Source: a virus
Reading direction: 5' to 3' (one strand)
DNA length: 64,000 nucleotides
Virus record (IMG/VR): IMGVR_UViG_3300033997_000035
Location: 1-64,000 of that record
In this document: one piece after another, positions 2,216 to 57,245 of the stretch
Layout: every line of letters begins with the position of its first letter
How positions within the stretch are numbered: the stretch's first letter is position 1
Position numbers and translations under genes: made by a program
Notes under the pieces: model-generated
Database searches by the model: none
Seen by the model: the letters and a program-made list of their open reading frames with translations, nothing else
What the model was told of the DNA's origin: nothing

Positions 2216-2710
2216 ATGTTTATGGTGTTGCCTATAGAAAATTGGGCAATCCTATATAAGTTGTTCATGGTGATGACCGCAGTGTTTCACCCGAATGTCC
2301 AGATACGTAAGTTTTGTATCTGGTTTTCTGCCAGTTGGGTGGTAACGGGATTTACCAAGGCATATTATCTTGATGGTGGTAGTTGGTTCATGATGCAAAC
2401 AGTTCATGAGTTGATTACCATCCTCTTGGTAATTTCCTTCCTAAGCACCATGAAATTAACAAAGGTTATTATCTTAACACAGGCAATATTCTTTGTTGGG
2501 TTGAATACCCTGCAATGGCAGACACTTACGGATTGGTTTATGCCGCCAGATAGATACATTTGGTGGAATATGGTAGGTTTTGAACTTATATTATTTAGTC
2601 TGTGGGGGAGGCATGAAGTGCTTCTGTCAATCAAGAAGCATTGGACATTTGAGAATGTTACTATGGTGTATATCATCACCTTAATTATCCTGCTTGCAGG
2701 GAACTACTAA
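2216..2710 (+). CDS. integral membrane protein (4-5 TM segments)
   Basis: Hydrophobic stretches throughout the 164-aa ORF; tightly packed after the upstream stop. Confidence 0.6.
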   Translation: MFMVLPIENWAILYKLFMVMTAVFHPNVQIRKFCIWFSASWVVTGFTKAYYLDGGSWFMMQTVHELITILLVISFLSTMKLTKVIILTQAIFFVGLNTLQWQTLTDWFMPPDRYIWWNMVGFELILFSLWGRHEVLLSIKKHWTFENVTMVYIITLIILLAGNY

Positions 2711-2721
2711 AAGGAAACAAT

Positions 2722-3240
2722 ATGAAATACTTGATTATAACAGCTCTCCTGTTATGTAGCTTTTCATCCTCAGCTAATTATGTGCTTGAGACTATAGATA
2801 TTGTATCTAAAGATGAAATCTGTGGTGACAGGGTTAAAGTTGGTGATACAATCACTGTTCTAAGTAATGGTGGTGAGTTAAAGGAGGCACACTTAGCTGA
2901 TAAATGTATTCGTGATAAGAAAATTAAGCTTGTTATAATGAAGGCATTATCAGCAGCCAGTTACCTATCCCTATTCAGTGATGACGTGTGTCTATTATCC
3001 AGTAGTGATATTGGAACGCATACACCATACTTAGACCCTAGGAATGTCAAGGTGGATGAAACTCGGGATATTCTTAGGGCGGTATTTATGACACTAGTAG
3101 ATGATGCTAAGATTGAAGCTAAACATTCGTTACAATACGTTGGGTTCATGTTCTTGATTCCATCTACAGAGATGGGCTCTATACCACATGAGATGTTTAT
3201 TGAGATACTTGGTAACAAATACAAAGGAGTGTGCAAATGA
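2722..3240 (+). CDS. secreted/periplasmic hypothetical protein
   Basis: N-terminal signal peptide MKYLIITALLLCSFSSSA; AGGAAA RBS. Confidence 0.6.
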   Translation: MKYLIITALLLCSFSSSANYVLETIDIVSKDEICGDRVKVGDTITVLSNGGELKEAHLADKCIRDKKIKLVIMKALSAASYLSLFSDDVCLLSSSDIGTHTPYLDPRNVKVDETRDILRAVFMTLVDDAKIEAKHSLQYVGFMFLIPSTEMGSIPHEMFIEILGNKYKGVCK

Positions 3241-3569
3241 GTTTATTAGTATACAACTCTCACACAGACTTATGTGCACGATATAAGGAGTTTGACATCA
3301 CAGAGTTGATTACAGACTCCACACCTCCTAAATTTGAAGGGGATGTATCGTTCATACTAGATACTTGTGTGAGATTGAAAGGGTTGAATAAGATTCACTC
3401 TGATAGGTATCGCAGCACTAAAGTGATTGACTTATCTTTAGGTAATGATATAGTGTTCTCACAGTATGACGCTGAGGGATATATTATTGTGACTAAATCT
3501 GTGCACTCGGATACAGTAGATGTTTTATTGAAGCGTTATAGTGTGCATGGTGTGTTGGTGGAGGTGTAA
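3237..3569 (+). CDS. hypothetical protein
   Basis: ATG 7 nt after AGGAG (3225-3229), overlaps the upstream stop (ATGA). Confidence 0.55.
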   Translation: MSLLVYNSHTDLCARYKEFDITELITDSTPPKFEGDVSFILDTCVRLKGLNKIHSDRYRSTKVIDLSLGNDIVFSQYDAEGYIIVTKSVHSDTVDVLLKRYSVHGVLVEV

Positions 3570-42073: not shown

Positions 42074-43219
42074 ATGCAATTTACATTTAACCCAGAAGTT
42101 CCAAAACAATCTCCACGTCCTCAGCAACAACGTGAAAGTAATGTTGATTGGGACAAGGTAAATGAATATCAAGCTAGTGTGCTTGGTATTGGTAAGCACA
42201 GCCTGATTGGTCGGATTGTGCAACTGTATGATTTGGGACTACAAGAACGTCAGGAAAAGTCTATCCCTTGGGATGCTACAAGTGAAAAAGACCACGGGTG
42301 GCGATTAGAGATTAACCCAGAAACTGGACTACAGAAAGATCCTTCTGCTAAAATCGAGATGGGTAAGTATAAGGGTAAAGAACAGGAGATCCTTACTTAC
42401 AAACCAACCGATGTTAGTCAGATGGCAATCGCTGTAGACTTCCCTGAGAAGATGATGAACTTATCCCAGTTCTTCAATCCCGAAGGTGAGCAAGTAGAAA
42501 AACCATTCCGTGATATTATTGGTCAAAATGGTTTTGGTGGTTTCCGAATTGTAGATGGTAATCGTGTGAACGTTATTGCACGTCCATTCAACTTGGCAGA
42601 GACCAACGTCAACCGTAATAAAAAGGATGCACCGTATCATTCTGCATTTGCTAAGAATGGTATGTTGTATGAACTTGCAGATTATTGTGGTGCGTTGGCA
42701 CCAGATGGTAACTTCCATATTGCAGATCTTACCAACCTGATTGGTAAAGTGTGTATGTTCGAAGTGGAAGTGAAGTGGAATGAGTGGAAGGATAAAAAAT
42801 CTGGGGAGACTAAGCGTAAGCTTGAAACTGATATTAAACCATCGGCACGTATGAGTCCTCGTGATGAAGCTTATTACAACTCAGACCTCAAACCCAAACT
42901 TGACGATGATGTATTAGGTGGCCTGTTGTTCCAAGGCGGTAACCGTGAACGAGATTTGAAGGAAGCTCGTGCTATTGTTATCAACACCATGTCATTGGCT
43001 AAGAACTGGAATGAGTCTAAGTTGAAGGCAGAATTAGAAGCTGTTCGTGCAGGTGGACAACAATCACCTTCGCAAACCCCTGTAGAAGCTCCTGAGAAGC
43101 ACGTAGCCGCGAGTTCTCAACCAGCCAATACGATGGTAGCACCGCAGCCTGTTAACTCAGTAGCGAGTGTTTCAGGTGGGTTGGACGAAGGTTGGGATGA
43201 CGATAAATACCCATTCTAA
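42074..43219 (+). CDS. ssDNA-binding-like protein with SSB-type acidic C-terminal tip
   Basis: C-terminus ...GWDDDKYPF resembles the DDDIPF tail of bacterial SSB and the acidic aromatic tail of T7 gp2.5. A Pro/Gln/Ala-rich linker precedes it. Lies in the replication block. Confidence 0.45.
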   Translation: MQFTFNPEVPKQSPRPQQQRESNVDWDKVNEYQASVLGIGKHSLIGRIVQLYDLGLQERQEKSIPWDATSEKDHGWRLEINPETGLQKDPSAKIEMGKYKGKEQEILTYKPTDVSQMAIAVDFPEKMMNLSQFFNPEGEQVEKPFRDIIGQNGFGGFRIVDGNRVNVIARPFNLAETNVNRNKKDAPYHSAFAKNGMLYELADYCGALAPDGNFHIADLTNLIGKVCMFEVEVKWNEWKDKKSGETKRKLETDIKPSARMSPRDEAYYNSDLKPKLDDDVLGGLLFQGGNRERDLKEARAIVINTMSLAKNWNESKLKAELEAVRAGGQQSPSQTPVEAPEKHVAASSQPANTMVAPQPVNSVASVSGGLDEGWDDDKYPF

Positions 43220-43480
43220 GGATGTCGTCAATAAACTTTGTGAATTGCTGGGAAATTAGACGATAAATTCATCGTATTGTCTGACAATCAGCAGGGAAGG
43301 TTACACTATGTAGTGTAACACCCTCCAGAGACTAACCTGATAAGGTGTAGGGGAGATTTCCTCGAAGCGCAAAAGTTGACTTCTGTCAGCCATGATATAG
43401 TCCACCACACGTTAGTGTGATCCCGTTTTAAGATGATATTCACTACTATCAATTACTAAATTGTATATGGTGTAATATGA

Positions 43481-51790: not shown

Positions 51791-52159
51791 CTAACGCTTA
51801 TTTATACCAAGCTCATCCATTTCAGATTGGGTCAAGTAGAACAAACCCCAGTCCTTACCTTCACCAAAGTTGTCCTTCGTGAGTGTGTTGGACGGGTCGC
51901 CTGTTTTATTAAACACCCAAAAGTCTCCATCTGGTAATCCAAAAGTATTTCTACTGTATCGCCATGTCAGGTTCTGACCATTTTCGCTGATAATACCTAA
52001 GCTTCCAAGGATCAATTCATCATCTGGGGTATATAAGGACACATACCATCCATTACGATTGTTGTAACCTGTGTGCATACGGTAGTTACCAGATTCAATT
52101 TGATAGTCCCTAACTTCGACTACTTGGTAATCCCCAGTACAGTTAAACTCAATAGCCAT
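51791..52159 (-). CDS. tail-associated hypothetical protein
   Basis: 122-aa ORF with ATGA overlap. Confidence 0.5.
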   Translation of the reverse strand: MAIEFNCTGDYQVVEVRDYQIESGNYRMHTGYNNRNGWYVSLYTPDDELILGSLGIISENGQNLTWRYSRNTFGLPDGDFWVFNKTGDPSNTLTKDNFGEGKDWGLFYLTQSEMDELGINKR

Positions 52160-52752
52160 TATCCACCTCCTGTTGGTGTAGTTGTTTCACCAATCTTATT
52201 AGTCTCAATATATTTCTGAGTGAGGTTGTAGCCATCAATCTGAGTCTTAGTTCCAGTTTTAGGGTCAGTAGTTGAAGCCAGAGAACTGCCTGTAGCTGCA
52301 TTAGGCTTCACTGTCACCGCAGTAAGTGTATCCAACTGAGCTTTCATTCCGAAATCTAGTTGCTGAACACCTAGGTTAACTGCAAGAGAGTCCTTTCCCT
52401 CTTTAACGTAATTGAATGATGTTATTACACAGTTTGCGAAGGATGGTACTAATCCATCAGCAGTTCCGTACAGTGTGAACACAACCGCTTCGTCCATACA
52501 CTGGTTTATTAGCTGGACATATTTCTCAGGGGTTTGAGTTTCATTGCGTATCTTAGTGGAGTTGATGGTGCCAACAATGTTGATGTTAGGTAAGTCGGGG
52601 TGATAATGATCACTCACTTTCACCCCACTCTGTAGTGTGTTCATAGTAGTGGAGGCAGAACGCATCACCTCCATACTGCTTGTCACATCTAACATTAACA
52701 ACGTATTACCATCAGCAGCTAAAAAGAATACCACATCTTTTAAAGTTGCCAT
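52159..52752 (-). CDS. tail-associated protein (DNA-circulation/distal tail position)
   Basis: 197 aa, immediately downstream of the tape measure gene. Confidence 0.45.
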   Translation of the reverse strand: MATLKDVVFFLAADGNTLLMLDVTSSMEVMRSASTTMNTLQSGVKVSDHYHPDLPNINIVGTINSTKIRNETQTPEKYVQLINQCMDEAVVFTLYGTADGLVPSFANCVITSFNYVKEGKDSLAVNLGVQQLDFGMKAQLDTLTAVTVKPNAATGSSLASTTDPKTGTKTQIDGYNLTQKYIETNKIGETTTPTGGG

Positions 52753-55700
52753 TAGTTTTGCACCATTTTAATCTCTGATTGAATTGCGTCTTTGATTGAT
52801 GGATTCTGTGCAACAATCTCACCAACTTTCTGACCATCAATATTGACTGTCCCAGTAATGGATAGTTTGTTACCCATGAATTGACCAGCGTTAATAGCAC
52901 TACCCATACCACTTGCAACAAACCCACCAAGGTTACCTTTGCTGAACATATTCATCAATGACATCATCATACTGTCACCAACACTCATGTTTGAAGTATT
53001 GGCAGCACCAAGCATGTGTTGTGCTACGTTGGCACCAGTGTTATTGGCCGCACCTTTACGTGGATCATATAGCAAGCCAATCTTATTCTTACTGAATAGC
53101 AAGTTATCCAATTCCTCAGCCCAGAAAGCCACTTCCTTGATTAAGTCTAGAAGTATTACGAACTGACCTACCAGAGGGAGAGCCTTTAGTGCCTTGCTGC
53201 CGAACAGTTTATAGATGTAGAGTGCAGGGCCAGCCATTGCAACTAAGAAAGCGTAACTGTCTCCTAACCCCTTAGAGATACTATTCAATACCTCGCCTAC
53301 AGATACTAGCATAGGTGTTACCCATTTAACACCATCAGCAATTAAGCTGAACACTGACCCAATTATCTTACCAAGTGCTTCCCACAGTGGCTTGAGCTTA
53401 ACCACTGACTCAGCCATAGCATTGAATAACTCTGTCAAACCCTCACCGAAACCAGACTTGAATATAATATTACCAGCTTCTTGGAATGAGAACATCAATC
53501 TGTTCATTGCAACACGGTTAGATAACATGGCCTTATCCAGACCTCCGTTAGCACGTGCAGCCGCAGACATGTTACGAGCAAAGTGTGGTAATACCTTTTC
53601 AGATATTAGACCACCTTTCATCTGCAAGTCCATCATAGACTTTACAGTGCCGTCTACCGTAAGACCAGCATCCTGAGCAGACTTCGCCATGATTTGTCAT
53701 GTAGTTTAATGTGTTCGTTAAACACACCCATTTAATAGCTATATATTTTCATATATAGGTCGGACTATATCATCACCATTTAAGGTGCTAAACTTTTCGA
53801 TGCCACTTGGTCACCTACACCCTACGGGTTAGTCTCTGGACGAGGGTTGTACCTCGCTGCTGATCACCATATTAAAGGCTTCCAGCAATTAATTCAGTTA
53901 TTCGATATACATTTCTGTATAAAGCCACACAAATTTATGGCATTTGGCAAAACTTCCATTATTGTTTTATACAACCATCGTTAGTGGCTGTCCACCCTTT
54001 CAGGTGGTATCGGACTATATCTTCACATTTAGTATGTGATTACCTTTTCGACACACTTGTGCCTACACTATAAATAGCTAGTCTCTGGAGGATTCCCACC
54101 TGTTAGATGGAGTCATTTTATAATCCTTAGAAATCCATGTCCAAGTTGCACCACATCTTAAGTGTAGCAGTGCATCCTTAGTTATGTTGGTGTGCTTCCT
54201 AATATATTCATTATTCTTCCCATCTTGAATCATTTCACAAACTTTACGAATAAACTGCTCATCATAATCTGAGCCTCGTAGGTGTTTATGAGGTTGACCT
54301 TCAATGGAGTGCAAATTATTTTCGAGACTTGTAACCCATTCTAAATTAGAAACGTGGTCATTTGTCCTATCGAAATCTTTGTGGTTAATTACTAAGCCTT
54401 CTTCGTACGTATCTTGAAGATATGCTAGTCCAACCATTCTTGCACAACGTCGGTGGTAATATTTTCTATTTTTATAAAGATTAACCACCCTGTAACCATC
54501 TATGTTAAGTTGGCTTTTTATTGGATGACCTTTACTGTTAAAAATATTACCGCTCTCGTCTATAGTATAATTTGGAAACTCTTCTATGACTCTCATGTTA
54601 CCTCCTGTTAAGAAGGCAGTGGATATTCCCTGCGAATTACCATCATGCCTTGATATAAGTTTACCATCTTACATCATTTTGAACAAGCATTAAGGCTTCT
54701 CGCAATTAGATAATTTTATAATGGGCAAAGTTTACCCATTTGGAGCTTTAATTCCTCTAGTTAAATCAATGACTTACGTTACCAAGTCACTACATCAAAG
54801 TCTTTAGATGTAACCTACATTACTGTAGGGCTAGACCATATCATAACCTCTCAAGAGGTTTTCACTGTTTCGGCTCTACTTAGAACCTACACCTTATCAG
54901 GTTGGTCTTTGAAGGTTGCCACAAAGTGACCTTCCCTGCTGATTGTCCGTTTAAGGATGTCCCAGCAATTAAATGAATTATTGATAACTGTCACCAGTTA
55001 AAAGGCCAAGGGTTTAGCCGATACGACTCCTTTTGACATCCAATTTGTTAAGTAAATCAATGACTTACTCCGTGTTAAACACGCTCTATGTTACCATAGA
55101 AGTTCAGACTATATCTTAACCTTCAACTGAATGGTCAGGTCATTTACGCTTCGAGGTATAAACCTCTACATCCTTACGGATTAGTCTTTACACGTTCCTC
55201 TTTAGAGGCTTCGCTAGGTATTATCCTGCTAGGACGTCCACCTAATTCATAAATTTAATTATTCGTTATATTTCTATAACGCCAAACAATGATTTATTTG
55301 TTGTAAAGCGTTTACCTGTGGACTATATCTTAATCCCGAAGGATTCCTTATTTTCGAGGAGATTCCCCTACATTCTTACGAATTAGTCTCTGAAGGTGGT
55401 TACCTAGTAACCGTCCATGCTGATTGTCTAATTAGATTTCCCAGCAATTAACAAGGTTTTTCATTAATATTACTATTAAAGGAGCCATAAACGTTTAGCT
55501 CTAGTACTCTCCGCACTACTCAACCCCAGCAAAGTACTCATTTCTGAAACGGCACTGAAGGCTGCCTTCGTATCTTCCAGACTCATCTTCCCTCTGGCCG
55601 ATAACATCTTGGCAAAGTTCTTACCACTGTCTGCCAAACTCAACCCTAGTCGATACGACTCATCCCTGACAAATTGAAAGTTACTACCTGCTTCCTGAGC

Positions 55701-56366
55701 ACTAGAACTTACAGCAAGTAATGTGTTGTTCACACTTTCAAAGTCCTGACCTACACGTGTAATACCCGCTGTCAATCCAGCGACAGCAAACGCACTCACC
55801 ATATTGCCAGCAAATTGCTTACTGGATGCTGTCATACGCTGCATGAGGAAGTTCTGCTTGTTGAGACTACGTTCCTGTTCCTTCATCACACGTAATCGTT
55901 CGCGTTCCTTAGCCACCAATAACCGTACTTCATCTGCTGTTTTAGCTGCTGCTACAGCACGTCTCAACTCCTGTTGTGCAGTGGCATTTACTGACCCAGC
56001 TTGATATGTCCTTAAGTTTAACGAAGACCGACCAAACGTAGTTTGTGCCTGAGATAATCCTGTCTGCCGTCTTGCTTCCATTCGTGCTAGGCGATCCATT
56101 TCCTTCTCACGGGCTTTGACGTGGGCATTTGCTGGTCTTTGTGCTATCCTTTGGAGTTCCTTTTCCTTTTTTATCTGCAAATTATATTCACGATTTAAAT
56201 GGCGCTCTCTTTCCATAGCATGAGCGTTCATCAGTTTCTGCTTTGCTACACTTTGCCTAGCTTCTTTCTGCTCAAAATTGGTCATCATCTTCTGAAACTT
56301 TTCCATCTTCTTGATGGCAGTATCAAAGTCTATACCAATCGTATACTGTACAAGGTTTTCAGCCAT
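52752..56366 (-). CDS. tail tape measure protein, six exons; proposed mature CDS join(56366..55497,55315..55296,55040..55016,54754..54734,53956..53937,53697..52752), 633 aa
   Basis: Track ORFs 55476..56366 (coiled-coil N-terminal half) and 52752..53690 (Gly/Ala/Met-rich C-terminal half) are TMP halves. Predicted splicing adds VNALQQM-MSKGVVSA-ELKLQMG-EVLPNAI-QI in frame. Position is between the frameshifted chaperones and the baseplate genes. Confidence 0.8.
53698..53936 (-). mobile_element. group I intron 5 (239 nt, ORF-less)
   Basis: P1 GCCAU/GUGGC, P10 ACAAAU/AUUUGU contiguous with P1, P2 UAUACA-GAAA-UGUAUA, P3 CUGA/UUAG, P4 UGCUG/CAGCA, P7 CCAGAGACUAA ... AUGAUAUAGUCC, P9 CUAUAUAU-GAAA-AUAUAUAG, omega-G at 53698. 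Confidence 0.8.
53957..54733 (-). mobile_element. group I intron 4 (777 nt) carrying an HNH homing endonuclease ORF
   Basis: P1 AAUGGGU/GCCCAUU (7 bp, U.G at the splice site), P10 GAAGUUU/AAACUUU, P3 AUUAUC/GGUAAU, P4 UGCGA/UCGCA (compensatory). The ORF is inserted before P7 and its stop codon lies inside CCAGAGACUAG. P9 CCACCU-GAAA-GGGUGG. Confidence 0.8.
54078..54596 (-). CDS. intron-encoded HNH homing endonuclease (NUMOD4 + HNH_3 type)
   Basis: FPNYTIDESGNIFN...GYRVVNL (NUMOD4-like) and INHKDFDRTNDHVSNLEWVTSLENNLHS (HNH). AGGAGG RBS 4 nt upstream. Confidence 0.85.
   Translation of the reverse strand: MRVIEEFPNYTIDESGNIFNSKGHPIKSQLNIDGYRVVNLYKNRKYYHRRCARMVGLAYLQDTYEEGLVINHKDFDRTNDHVSNLEWVTSLENNLHSIEGQPHKHLRGSDYDEQFIRKVCEMIQDGKNNEYIRKHTNITKDALLHLRCGATWTWISKDYKMTPSNRWESSRD
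54755..55015 (-). mobile_element. group I intron 3 (261 nt, ORF-less)
   Basis: P1 GGCU/GGCC, P2 UAACUG-GUGA-CAGUUA, P3 UUCA/UGAA, P4 UGCUG/CAGCA, P7 AAAGACCAA ... AUGAUAUGGUCU (compensatory U->C / A->G), P9 CCUACA-GUAA-UGUAGG. The 3' splice site is tentative within a few nt. Confidence 0.7.
55041..55295 (-). mobile_element. group I intron 2 (255 nt, ORF-less)
   Basis: P1 CAAAU/GUUUG, P10 GAUG/CAUU contiguous with P1, P2 GUUAUA-GAAA-UAUAAC, P3 UUUAUG/CGUAAA, P4 UAGGU/ACCUA (compensatory), P7 AAAGACUAA ... AAGAUAUAGUCU, P9 UCUAUG-GUAA-CAUAGA. Confidence 0.75.
55316..55496 (-). mobile_element. group I intron 1 (181 nt, ORF-less, no P9)
   Basis: Follows exon GAGCU. P1 GAGCU/GGCUC with U.G, P10 GUAAACG/CGUUUAU, P2 UUAAUA-GUAA-UAUUAA, P3 CCUU/AAGG, J3/4-P4 UUAAUUGCUGGG, P4' CAGCA, P7 CAGAGACUAA ... 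AAGAUAUAGUCC, omega-G at 55316. Confidence 0.8.
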
Positions 56367-56381
56367 TGTAATACCTCGTTG

Positions 56382-57175
56382 TTATGCTGAATTCTTACCA
56401 TAAGTATTTAAAGCTTTATTTTTTGCTTCTAAGCTCTTATAATCTAATTCGGCAGCTTGTTTTAAGTCATTGTAATAATCTATCAATGACGATAATTCTA
56501 AAAACTCCTCTACACTGTATTCCCATTTGAGTGTGCTTAATGTCTCTGAACAATACTCAGAGTTTGCCACCATAAAAAACCATGAATCTACTTCAAAGTT
56601 CTCCCTCTGTTTGCTGGCATACTCTACTACTTCGTATTGGTGTCGTCTTTCAAATCGTTTACGGAGTTCAGCATTGTGTCTAGCACTTCTTTCATTTTCG
56701 GAGTGAGCAACACCATCAGCTTCTCGATCAAAGTACGAAGTGTAGCGTTGCCCCACAAAAAATCCTTGAAGTTCTCCACGAACAACCAACACAATACTGT
56801 TAAGTAATCACCTTGGTTATCGTCAAAGTAATCTTCAACCTCCTCCATTGTCATTTCTTTATCTTTAACCATCAAGCTACCTAACATCTTACGGCTGATG
56901 TCATCGAAATGATCTTCTGAAATGTGCACTGTTAGCATGTTCAGCATTTTACCAAACATATTAGAATGTGGTTCCAGTAATTGCTCCTCACGATACTGGT
57001 GCTCCATCATAGCATCCATACCACTCCCTAACGCTGGTGTTAACGCTGTGAGCAATTTAAATCCTTCCTTAATACTATCGTAGGTGGCTAGCTTTCTAGC
57101 CTTGTACATGCGTTCTACGCCGTCTGAGCCTATGATTAGCTTACTAATAACTTTCTTGTTATATCTTACTGACAT
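56382..57175 (-). CDS. tail assembly chaperone, -1 frameshift fusion product (GT-like)
   Basis: The zero frame GAT-TTT-TTG contains slippery U UUU UUG. The -1 frame continues as ORF 56382..56792. Canonical position between the tube and tape measure genes. Confidence 0.6.
56627..57175 (-). CDS. tail assembly chaperone (G-like, zero-frame product)
   Basis: Start at MSVRYNKK after AGGAGAAAG. The longer start in the track runs through the tube-gene terminator. Confidence 0.65.
   Translation of the reverse strand: MSVRYNKKVISKLIIGSDGVERMYKARKLATYDSIKEGFKLLTALTPALGSGMDAMMEHQYREEQLLEPHSNMFGKMLNMLTVHISEDHFDDISRKMLGSLMVKDKEMTMEEVEDYFDDNQGDYLTVLCWLFVENFKDFLWGNATLRTLIEKLMVLLTPKMKEVLDTMLNSVNDLKDDTNTK
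56756..56762 (-). promoter_or_regulatory. -1 programmed ribosomal frameshift slippery heptamer TTTTTTG
   Basis: X XXY YYZ in the zero frame of the chaperone ORF, inside the 166-nt overlap of the two ORFs. Confidence 0.6.
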
Positions 57176-57186
57176 ACTTTCTCCTA

Positions 57187-57225
57187 AAATAAAAAGGGAG
57201 GCTCTGACCACAAGCCACGCCTCCC
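57187..57225 (-). terminator. intrinsic terminator / attenuator after the tube gene
   Basis: GGGAGGC-N16-GCCTCCC followed by TTTTTATTTT on the minus strand. Confidence 0.6.
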
Positions 57226-57245
57226 TATCGAACATTAAATTGTAA

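Follow-up and report, generated by a model that had tools for sequence, protein, structure and literature searches.

A candidate mobile array of five group I introns with a single homing endonuclease gene in the tail tape-measure gene of a phage

[quoted passage not shown] In the td intron of phage T4, the last 20 nt of the I-TevI open reading frame (ORF) form P6a/P6/P7 and the ribosome-binding site (RBS) lies in a hairpin; ribosome occupancy impairs td splicing, and a 'core creep' model has been proposed (Edgell, Chalamcharla & Belfort 2011, PMC3073962). The orf142 gene of the Staphylococcus phage Twort contains three IA2 introns and a 23-nt exon and shows exon skipping, according to the citation of Landthaler & Shub 1999 in PMC10136302. 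In collaborative homing, as outlined in PMC10448857, a free-standing HEG cuts the insertion site of an ORF-less intron (Bonocora & Shub 2009; Zeng et al. 2009). Here we describe a TMP gene interrupted by five group I introns in the IMG/VR virus record IMGVR_UViG_3300033997_000035, of which positions 1 to 64,000 (hereafter the window) were analysed; the viral genome, of which this 64-kb window makes up the first half, is 128,076 bp long and has direct terminal repeats. Our analysis makes it reasonably likely that a mobile group I intron of the IA2 type, intron 4, is inserted in the most conserved TMP stretch of an ICP1-like marine myophage, and that the array of introns around it hitchhikes by co-conversion with its HEG.

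The boundaries of the five introns were set from the P1 U.G pairs, the terminal G, the reading frame and comparison with relatives, and the coordinates of all features of the TMP locus are given on the minus strand (Table 1). Removal of the five introns yields a 1902-nt TMP ORF with a single stop, and the spliced protein is colinear with the TMPs of two Vibrio phages in which the gene is uninterrupted, 1.170.O and helene 12B3, with junctions (marked ^) at ..STRA^VNALQQM^MSKGVVSA^ELKLQMG^EVLPNAI^QIMAKSAQDAG.. in the alignment. The frame would also be preserved if exon 4, exons 2+3, exons 2-4 or exons 3-5 were skipped. Each intron has an in-frame stop 6-15 codons past its 5' splice site, which is a known feature of group I introns (PMC3073962). 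A window scan with the Rfam model RF00028 (gathering score, 50 bits) matched introns 2, 3 and 5, at 55301-55084, 55025-54813 and 53946-53740, respectively. Introns 1 and 4 were not picked up by the gathering scan of the whole window, and a narrow search added intron 1 at 55507-55301.

The position that the sequence-only reading, an earlier model-made annotation of the window, had given to intron 4 proved exact, as judged from the P1 U.G pair, the omega-G and the restoration of the frame. In P1, AUGGGU^AA of the junction ..AUGGGU^AAAC.. pairs with UUGCCCAU, which puts the U.G pair at the 5' splice site, and the 3' end carries the omega-G in ..AAUAAUG^GAAG. Intron 4 matched RF00028 as fragments only (31.1 bits at 53991-54170, 22.3 bits at 53993-54025 and 17.7 bits at 54546-54714), because the 519-nt ORF splits the model over the whole intron. 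When the ORF was deleted, the fold gave P4, P5/P5a, P6/P6a, P8, P9 and P9.1. P3, which is AUUAUCU/AGGUAAU in the window genome, is CCUAUU/..GGUAGG in phage 11895-B1, an instance of covariation, and P7 (GACUA/UAGUC) has the G-C guanosine-binding pair and a flanking G-C. Same-site orthologues of intron 4 were found in phages 1/4, 11895-B1, HNL01 and ICP1 and in allele L023. Orthology between the Shewanella-type and Vibrio-type introns at this site was assigned from the insertion codon, the P3'/P7 signatures and the homology of the HNH proteins, as full-length MAFFT identities were too noisy.

Intron 4 was said to be the only ORF carrier of the five, and this agrees with our search, in which its ORF was the only one longer than 18 aa that starts with ATG in the five introns (54596..54078). 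Of the label HNH/NUMOD4 that had been attached to this ORF, the first half was borne out by a match to Pfam HNH_3 (29.4 bits; cut-off, 24.8) and by homology to I-HmuI (1U3E, E=4.4e-11) over residues 9-93, whereas the second half was not: NUMOD4 was not detected in the ORF at E<=10, and the orthologue of phage 1/4 reached 13.3 bits against a cut-off of 23.4. The catalytic motif NHKD...NLEWVT..EN aligns with DHKD...NLRWVT..N of I-HmuI, and the N-terminus aligns with the N-terminal strands of I-HmuI. The ORF is 41.6% identical to the site-4 intron ORF of Vibrio phage 11895-B1. Its identity to the orthologue of Shewanella phage 1/4 is 81% at the amino acid level and 73% at the nucleotide level, with a dN of 0.144 and a saturated dS; the low dN relative to dS and the excess of amino acid over nucleotide identity point to purifying selection on the ORF. 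Judged by homology, the encoded enzyme is probably a strand-specific nickase that acts near the intron-less site-4 junction. A strong Shine-Dalgarno sequence, AGGAGG (54606-54601, minus strand), stands at the optimal spacing of 4 nt before the ATG and is predicted to be paired in a hairpin, and an analogous CCUC/GAGG hairpin precedes the ORF in phage 1/4. Such a hairpin may, on weak support, limit HNH translation.

The ORF had been placed between P6 and P7; its exact place is the P6a loop rather than simply the interval between these two helices. As the sequence-only reading had stated, the last codons of the ORF are the 5' strand of P7, and translation and core folding draw on the same nucleotides, since the 22 nt at the end of the ORF form P6a', P6', J6/7 and P7 (Table 1). 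The P7 pair that holds the U of the stop codon covaries, being part of GACCA/UGGUC in all site-3 introns and of GAUCA/UGAUC in ICP1 intron 4. In phage 1/4, the orthologous ORF is closed by a TGA that lies 17 nt upstream of P7 and is in frame with the UAA of P7. Four orthologues at a greater distance likewise stop upstream, and the ORFs of 11895-B1, HNL01 and L023 end before J6/7. Since the relatives stop upstream, the stop within P7 is a derived state of the window genome and not a conserved design: an upstream stop has been lost, and the ORF reads on to the next in-frame stop, the UAG within P7. A ribosome that finishes the ORF would then unfold P6a, P6, J6/7 and P7, and by analogy with T4 td/I-TevI a single RNA molecule could be translated or spliced, but not both at once. 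The arrangement fits the 'core creep' model and mirrors T4 td/I-TevI. The idea of competition between translation and folding is thus sound but not new, and the locus is a further case of the T4 td type. The T4 td/I-TevI system is also the subject of Gibb & Edgell 2010.

The run of the ORF into P7 could alternatively be read as a step of decay in an ORF that is now non-functional. The C-terminus is indeed unlike that of all orthologues, and Asn (INHKD) takes the place of the Asp that binds metal in I-HmuI (VDHKD). However, NHKD is common to the orthologues of 1/4 and 11895-B1 and to the intron-X HNH protein of phage 1/40, the frame is intact over 172 codons, dN is far under the saturated dS, and the strong AGGAGG is kept at optimal spacing. 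We therefore consider decay improbable and retain the reading of an intact endonuclease gene.

To place the array among its relatives, we read the hot spot in 17 alleles, which are phylogenetically non-independent; a single-protein search of viral contigs gave only 3 loci, and an alignment-based search was needed. In all, 331 phage records contain this family of TMP. Seven insertion sites, in the order 1, 2, Y, 3, X, 4 and 5, lie inside about 90 nt of TMP coding sequence. The window phage has introns 1, 2, 3, 4 (HNH) and 5; phage 1/4 has introns 1, 2, 3 and 4 (HNH); and phage 1/40 has introns 1, 2 and X (HNH). The metagenomic phage L018 carries introns 1, 2, Y and X (HNH frameshifted), with a 7-nt exon between introns 2 and Y. 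Introns 2 and 4 (HNH) are present in 11895-B1, introns 2, X and 4 in HNL01 (HNH decayed, the gene being split by a stop), introns 3 and 4 (HNH) in L023, and introns 3, X (HNH) and 4 in ICP1, to whose isolates allele L025 is 100% identical. Intron X (HNH) is the only intron in L022 and the one read in L017, whose contig is cut at its 5' end and covers no site upstream of X. The other seven alleles are intronless. Orthologues of intron 1 were identified in 1/4, 1/40 and L018 at 80% identity, and those of intron 2 in the same three phages and in 11895-B1 and HNL01, while the P7 signature GACCA/UGGUC of intron 3 is common to the site-3 introns of 1/4, L023 and ICP1. The ICP1 orthologues at sites 3, X and 4 splice in vivo (PMC10448857).

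Occupancy thus varies widely over the 17 alleles. A pattern of all five introns or none, which the sequence-only reading had named as the observation that would speak against mobility, is not what the relatives display, and the proposed mobility stands unrefuted. The HEG is found in different introns among relatives (at site 4, at site X, and at sites 3 and 4 in ICP1 M4), which points to HEG turnover within a shared hot spot. Both the TMP hot spot and HEG turnover are already published, and the picture is extended here by the five-intron allele and by sites 1, 2, Y and 5.

Comparisons between alleles bear directly on how introns without an ORF persist. On either side of one segment, phages 1/4 and 1/40 match at 97-100% identity; within it, exactly between the exon 3 end and the exon 5 start, they are unrelated (about 50% identity). 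The swapped block consists of intron 3, exon 4 and intron 4 with its HEG in 1/4, and of intron X with a different, 235-aa HNH protein in 1/40. This clean block swap indicates that the ORF-less intron 3 travels with the HEG-bearing intron 4. Between the window phage and 1/4, identity peaks at 80-92% over introns 1-3 and decays over about 300-400 nt into both long exons, and the neighbouring genes are 55-65% identical. In addition, an HNH ORF accompanies the ORF-less introns in each of the eight alleles that have them (intact in six, frameshifted in L018 and decayed in HNL01), all seven alleles without an HNH ORF have no intron, and no allele has ORF-less introns alone.

These observations recast the earlier proposal of trans-mobilisation by a single endonuclease. 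It remains tenable only as co-conversion with an HEG-bearing neighbour, for which the 1/4-1/40 swap, the identity peak and the lack of any allele with ORF-less introns alone argue, and not as cleavage at multiple sites. In the mechanism that we propose, the ORF-less introns would not be individually cut by the intron 4 enzyme. The four of them are 20 to 66 exon nt from site 4, and as the micro-exons would be too short to provide homology for recombination, a break at the hot spot would be repaired from the long exons 1 and 6, with the whole array being copied. The ORF-less introns would in this way hitchhike by co-conversion with whichever intron currently holds the HEG, which we infer to be the best reading and the most economical mechanism.

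It is very improbable, by comparison, that a single HNH enzyme recognises and cuts all five junctions as related sites, thereby mobilising every intron on its own. Each of the five 5' exons has U as its last letter, which is followed by AAA(C/U) of the intron, and three of the five 3' exons begin with GA; the shared U^AAA, however, is a feature of the ribozyme (P1) that does not occur in the intron-less DNA target. The five target junctions (+-15 nt), compared in register, agree at 9.2 of 30 positions, whereas random sites of the gene that are preceded by U give 8.5+-0.8 (P=0.21). The cluster of related target sites that had been postulated for one enzyme is thus no more alike than chance, which makes cutting of five related sites by one enzyme unlikely. 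Moreover, enzymes of the I-HmuI type (PDB 1U3E) read long asymmetric sites.

The ORF-less introns might also be immobile relics that lost their own HEGs in a Goddard-Burt cycle and are inherited vertically, their co-occurrence with intron 4 being coincidental. Such losses would agree with the location of the HEG in different introns of relatives, namely at site X in 1/40, L018, L022 and ICP1 and in the first and third introns of ICP1 M4 (PMC10448857), as well as with the decayed, stop-split HNH gene in intron 4 of HNL01. Against this, introns 1, 2, Y and 5 were never found with a HEG among the alleles, introns 1-3 are 80-89% identical to those of 1/4 in the midst of flanking genes at 55-65%, the ORF-less introns always occur with an HNH-ORF-bearing intron in the same allele, and intron 3 has been swapped together with intron 4 between near-identical phages. 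We regard the relic explanation as unlikely and continue to favour co-conversion with the HEG.

Some points weigh against co-conversion or temper the account of intron 4. Intron 5 is present in the window phage and absent from 1/4, which has the same intron 4, so that gain or loss of a single intron can be independent of the block. Part of the identity peak over the introns could come from ribozyme and protein constraint and not from recent exchange, and the association of ORF-less introns with HEGs, across 17 non-independent alleles, is only indicative. The Shine-Dalgarno hairpin is not exceptional against shuffled sequences (z = -1.4), 17 of 200 of which fold as well, and a sigma-70 promoter scan upstream of the HNH ORF within the intron returned nothing convincing. 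Finally, splicing of introns 1, 2 and 5 is predicted from the sequence, as is cleavage by the HNH protein.

A wider version of the hitchhiking mechanism, which we put forward as speculative and hold to be somewhat doubtful, treats the hot spot as one composite mobile cassette. Any resident HEG would drive the array, the ORF-less ribozymes would persist indefinitely as passengers, and alternative cassettes (introns 3 and 4 with the HEG versus intron X with a different HEG) would be competing alleles of co-infecting phages. With a length of only 7-33 nt (20-25 nt in the window genome), the exons that separate introns would not be usable as recombination homology. If the composite cassette were true, intron 5, which lies 20 nt downstream of site 4, would interrupt the 3'-exon recognition sequence of an I-HmuI-type enzyme and so confer self-immunity.

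The origin of the five introns was examined through their mutual similarity. Core identities of about 60-70% had been quoted for the siblings, and our measurement of 65-66% of alignment length among introns 1, 3 and 5 agrees with this figure. Full-length identity among the five TMP introns is 47-60%, and three further, unlinked group I introns of the genome (43152-43421, 79343-79671 and, on the plus strand, 121138-121348) are no less similar. A tree of the J6/7-to-P7' block places each window intron with the same-site orthologue from other phages (intron 3, 98/99; intron 4, 99/99), and no window TMP intron groups with another window TMP intron. Site labels on the tree required 13 changes, compared with 20.5 when shuffled. 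Because each intron pairs with its same-site orthologue, the five introns appear to be old site-specific lineages and not recent copies. Recent copying within the cluster, that is, the serial ectopic spread suggested by the sequence-only reading, is not supported.

Ectopic spread is nevertheless plausible for intron 5, with the DNA polymerase gene rather than the TMP siblings as its possible source. Among the 17 alleles, intron 5 is found only in the window genome, and site 5 is empty in all relatives examined. The best matches of intron 5 (73% over 193 nt, above the 54-60% of any TMP sibling) are Vibrio phage introns that lie within or next to the DNA polymerase gene, a context that is annotated for one of the eight top matches and was inspected in one case. 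Intron 5 and these relatives have the same 5' exon, ..CCAU^, and the same guide, UGUGG. We therefore tentatively entertain an origin of intron 5 by ectopic transposition from a DNA polymerase-gene intron, for example by reverse splicing at the 4-5-nt guide match; the comparison, with its one polymerase context, covers the 5' exon.

Short patches are shared between introns at different sites. A 24-nt P7-P7.1 stretch is identical in intron 1 (55316-55400, minus strand) and in the unlinked intron at 79343-79671 (minus strand), the two introns being sisters in the tree (97/95), and the orthologue of intron 1 in 1/4 differs across that stretch; a similar patch is shared by intron 3 and the 43-kb intron. 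These patches suggest gene conversion between introns of one genome. The 16-nt element GUAAGUCAUUGAUUUA is present in the 3' tails of introns 2 and 3 (55053-55068 and 54762-54777, minus strand) and nowhere else in the genome. In 1/40, L018, HNL01 and ICP1, intron X starts with a close copy of it (AAGUUAUUGAUUU..), and further close copies lie in the tails of intron 3 in L023 and intron 4 in 1/4; the element may be a relic of recombination between intron cassettes. In L018, introns Y (1987-2220) and X (2247-3296) have an identical 22-nt P7-P7.1 segment, and the P5 extension of intron X matches the site-4 introns of 11895-B1 and HNL01, which points to possible modular exchange between introns at different sites.

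Table 1 Features of the TMP locus in the window
Feature	Coordinates	Strand	Description
Tail tape-measure protein (TMP) gene	52752..56366	-	host of five introns; 633 aa after splicing; homologues annotated as TMP
Intron 1 (site 1)	55316..55496	-	181 nt, without ORF; Rfam 51.3 bits in narrow search
Micro-exon 2	55296-55315	-	20 nt
Intron 2 (site 2)	55041..55295	-	255 nt, without ORF; Rfam 71.4 bits
Micro-exon 3	55016-55040	-	25 nt
Intron 3 (site 3)	54755..55015	-	261 nt, without ORF; Rfam 68.5 bits; 3' splice site placed at in-frame G 54755
Micro-exon 4	54734-54754	-	21 nt
Intron 4 (site 4)	53957..54733	-	777 nt, group I (IA2-like); after the Gly codon GGU of ..KLQMG^EVLPNA..
Shine-Dalgarno hairpin	54601..54617	-	AGGAGG paired with upstream GCCUUCU; predicted -8.9 kcal/mol
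HNH_3 / I-HmuI-like homing endonuclease ORF	54078..54596	-	172 aa + stop, P6a loop of intron 4
ORF 3' end/core overlap	54078..54099	-	22 nt, last eight codons
P6a' GUGG	54099-54096	-	read from sequence
P6' UCC	54092-54090	-	read from sequence
J6/7	54089-54084	-	read from sequence
P7 5' strand GACUA	54083-54079	-	pairs with UAGUC
Stop UAG of HNH ORF	54080-54078	-	U and A are the last two P7 pairs
P7 3' strand UAGUC	54013..54017	-	inside conserved AAGAUAUAGUC (J8/7-P7')
Micro-exon 5	53937..53956	-	20 nt
Intron 5 (site 5)	53698..53936	-	239 nt, without ORF; Rfam 67.9 bits
Tail assembly chaperone, TMP neighbour	56627-57235	-	Pfam
Dit-like protein, other TMP neighbour	52159-52752	-	Pfam

Two alternative placements of exon and intron ends were considered and rejected. 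The Rfam alignment suggested exon 2 as the P9 of intron 1, but exon 2 encodes VNALQQ and aligns to intronless homologues. For intron 3, a non-G 3' splice site would give the conserved AEELK and a 4-bp P10, but P7 keeps its G-C guanosine-binding pair; the site was placed at the in-frame G 54755, which gives AELK and the exon junction GCU^GAA. The sequence GAGGAAUUAAAG at 54755-54760 (minus strand), encoding the EELK of all homologues, is kept in the DNA, but the base before it is A and not G; splicing at the one in-frame G leaves AELK, which lacks one Glu, in both the window phage and 1/4. The splice site of intron 3 may thus have undergone mutation of the terminal G and a 3-nt shift.

The GenBank records of 1/4 (L001), 1/40 (L002), 11895-B1 (L010) and HNL01 (L012) have no intron features, and their micro-exons are unannotated. 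TMP appears in these records as a truncated 'tape measure protein' and a 'hypothetical protein'. The public annotation of TMP as two separate ORFs plus an HNH gene is wrong. TMP exon 1 of the window phage (55497-56366, minus strand) encodes 290 aa, compared with 629 aa annotated in 1/4 and 1/40 (L001 1498-3384), and spliced TMP would have 633 aa, compared with roughly 970 aa in these two phages, which implies either a much shorter tail here or a large N-terminal insertion in the Baltic phages. Elsewhere in the window, a sixth group I intron at 43152-43421 (plus strand, 43.1 bits) interrupts a 381-aa gene at a point three codons from the end. The host protein has an SSB-like acidic tail that ends in ..GWDDD^IPF when spliced and in ..GWDDDKYPF when unspliced, so the end motif is similar both ways.

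The TMP locus may be regarded as a natural experiment in the coexistence of selfish introns, with up to five of seven sites filled and one endonuclease in an essential gene. Alternative intron cassettes are the only difference between the near-identical cultured phages 1/4 (grown on Shewanella glacialimarina) and 1/40, which makes co-conversion, hitchhiking and HEG turnover testable in culturable hosts, and core creep can be viewed in its before state (1/4) and its after state (window phage) side by side. The value of the finding is in this comparative series and in the culturable pair.

Among known systems, the TMP introns of ICP1 (Barth, Dunham & Seed 2023, PMC10448857) are in the same gene and the same conserved stretch, with sites 3 and 4 at identical codons, the GACCA/UGGUC signature of P7 at site 3, and an HNH-3 HEG in one intron beside ORF-less neighbours. 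ICP1 differs in having three introns (3, X and 4) with the HEG usually in X, whereas the window phage has five (1, 2, 3, 4 and 5) with the HEG in intron 4, and sites 1, 2, 5 and Y are empty in the ICP1 allele L025. The T4 td/I-TevI system (PMC3073962) likewise has its ORF in the P6 loop, with the last ~20 nt giving P6a, P6 and P7, an RBS in a hairpin (a predicted one in the window phage), an opposition of ribosome and ribozyme fold, and an ORF extended to the next in-frame stop after loss of an earlier one. The enzyme, however, is of the GIY-YIG type in T4 and HNH in the window phage, and the splicing effect is experimental and the RBS hairpin proven in T4, while in the window phage the effect is deduced and the hairpin statistically weak. 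I-HmuI and I-HmuII of the Bacillus phages SPO1 and SP82 (1U3E) resemble the intron 4 protein in their N-terminal DNA-binding strands and HNH motif and in being intron-encoded in an essential phage gene; I-HmuI occupies P8 in a DNA polymerase intron and has an overlap of 9 nt (PMC3073962, Table 1 therein), in contrast to P6a and 22 nt for intron 4. Twort orf142, as it is described where cited in PMC10136302, is similar in having several related IA2 introns in one phage gene and a micro-exon of about 20 nt; the TMP gene of the window phage differs in its five introns, four micro-exons and one HEG, and its splicing is predicted from sequence. Collaborative homing, in the outline given in PMC10448857, also spreads an ORF-less intron by an endonuclease that it does not encode. 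In the window phage, by contrast, the proposed helper would reside inside a neighbouring intron 20-66 exon nt away, and the ORF-less introns would ride the repair tract.

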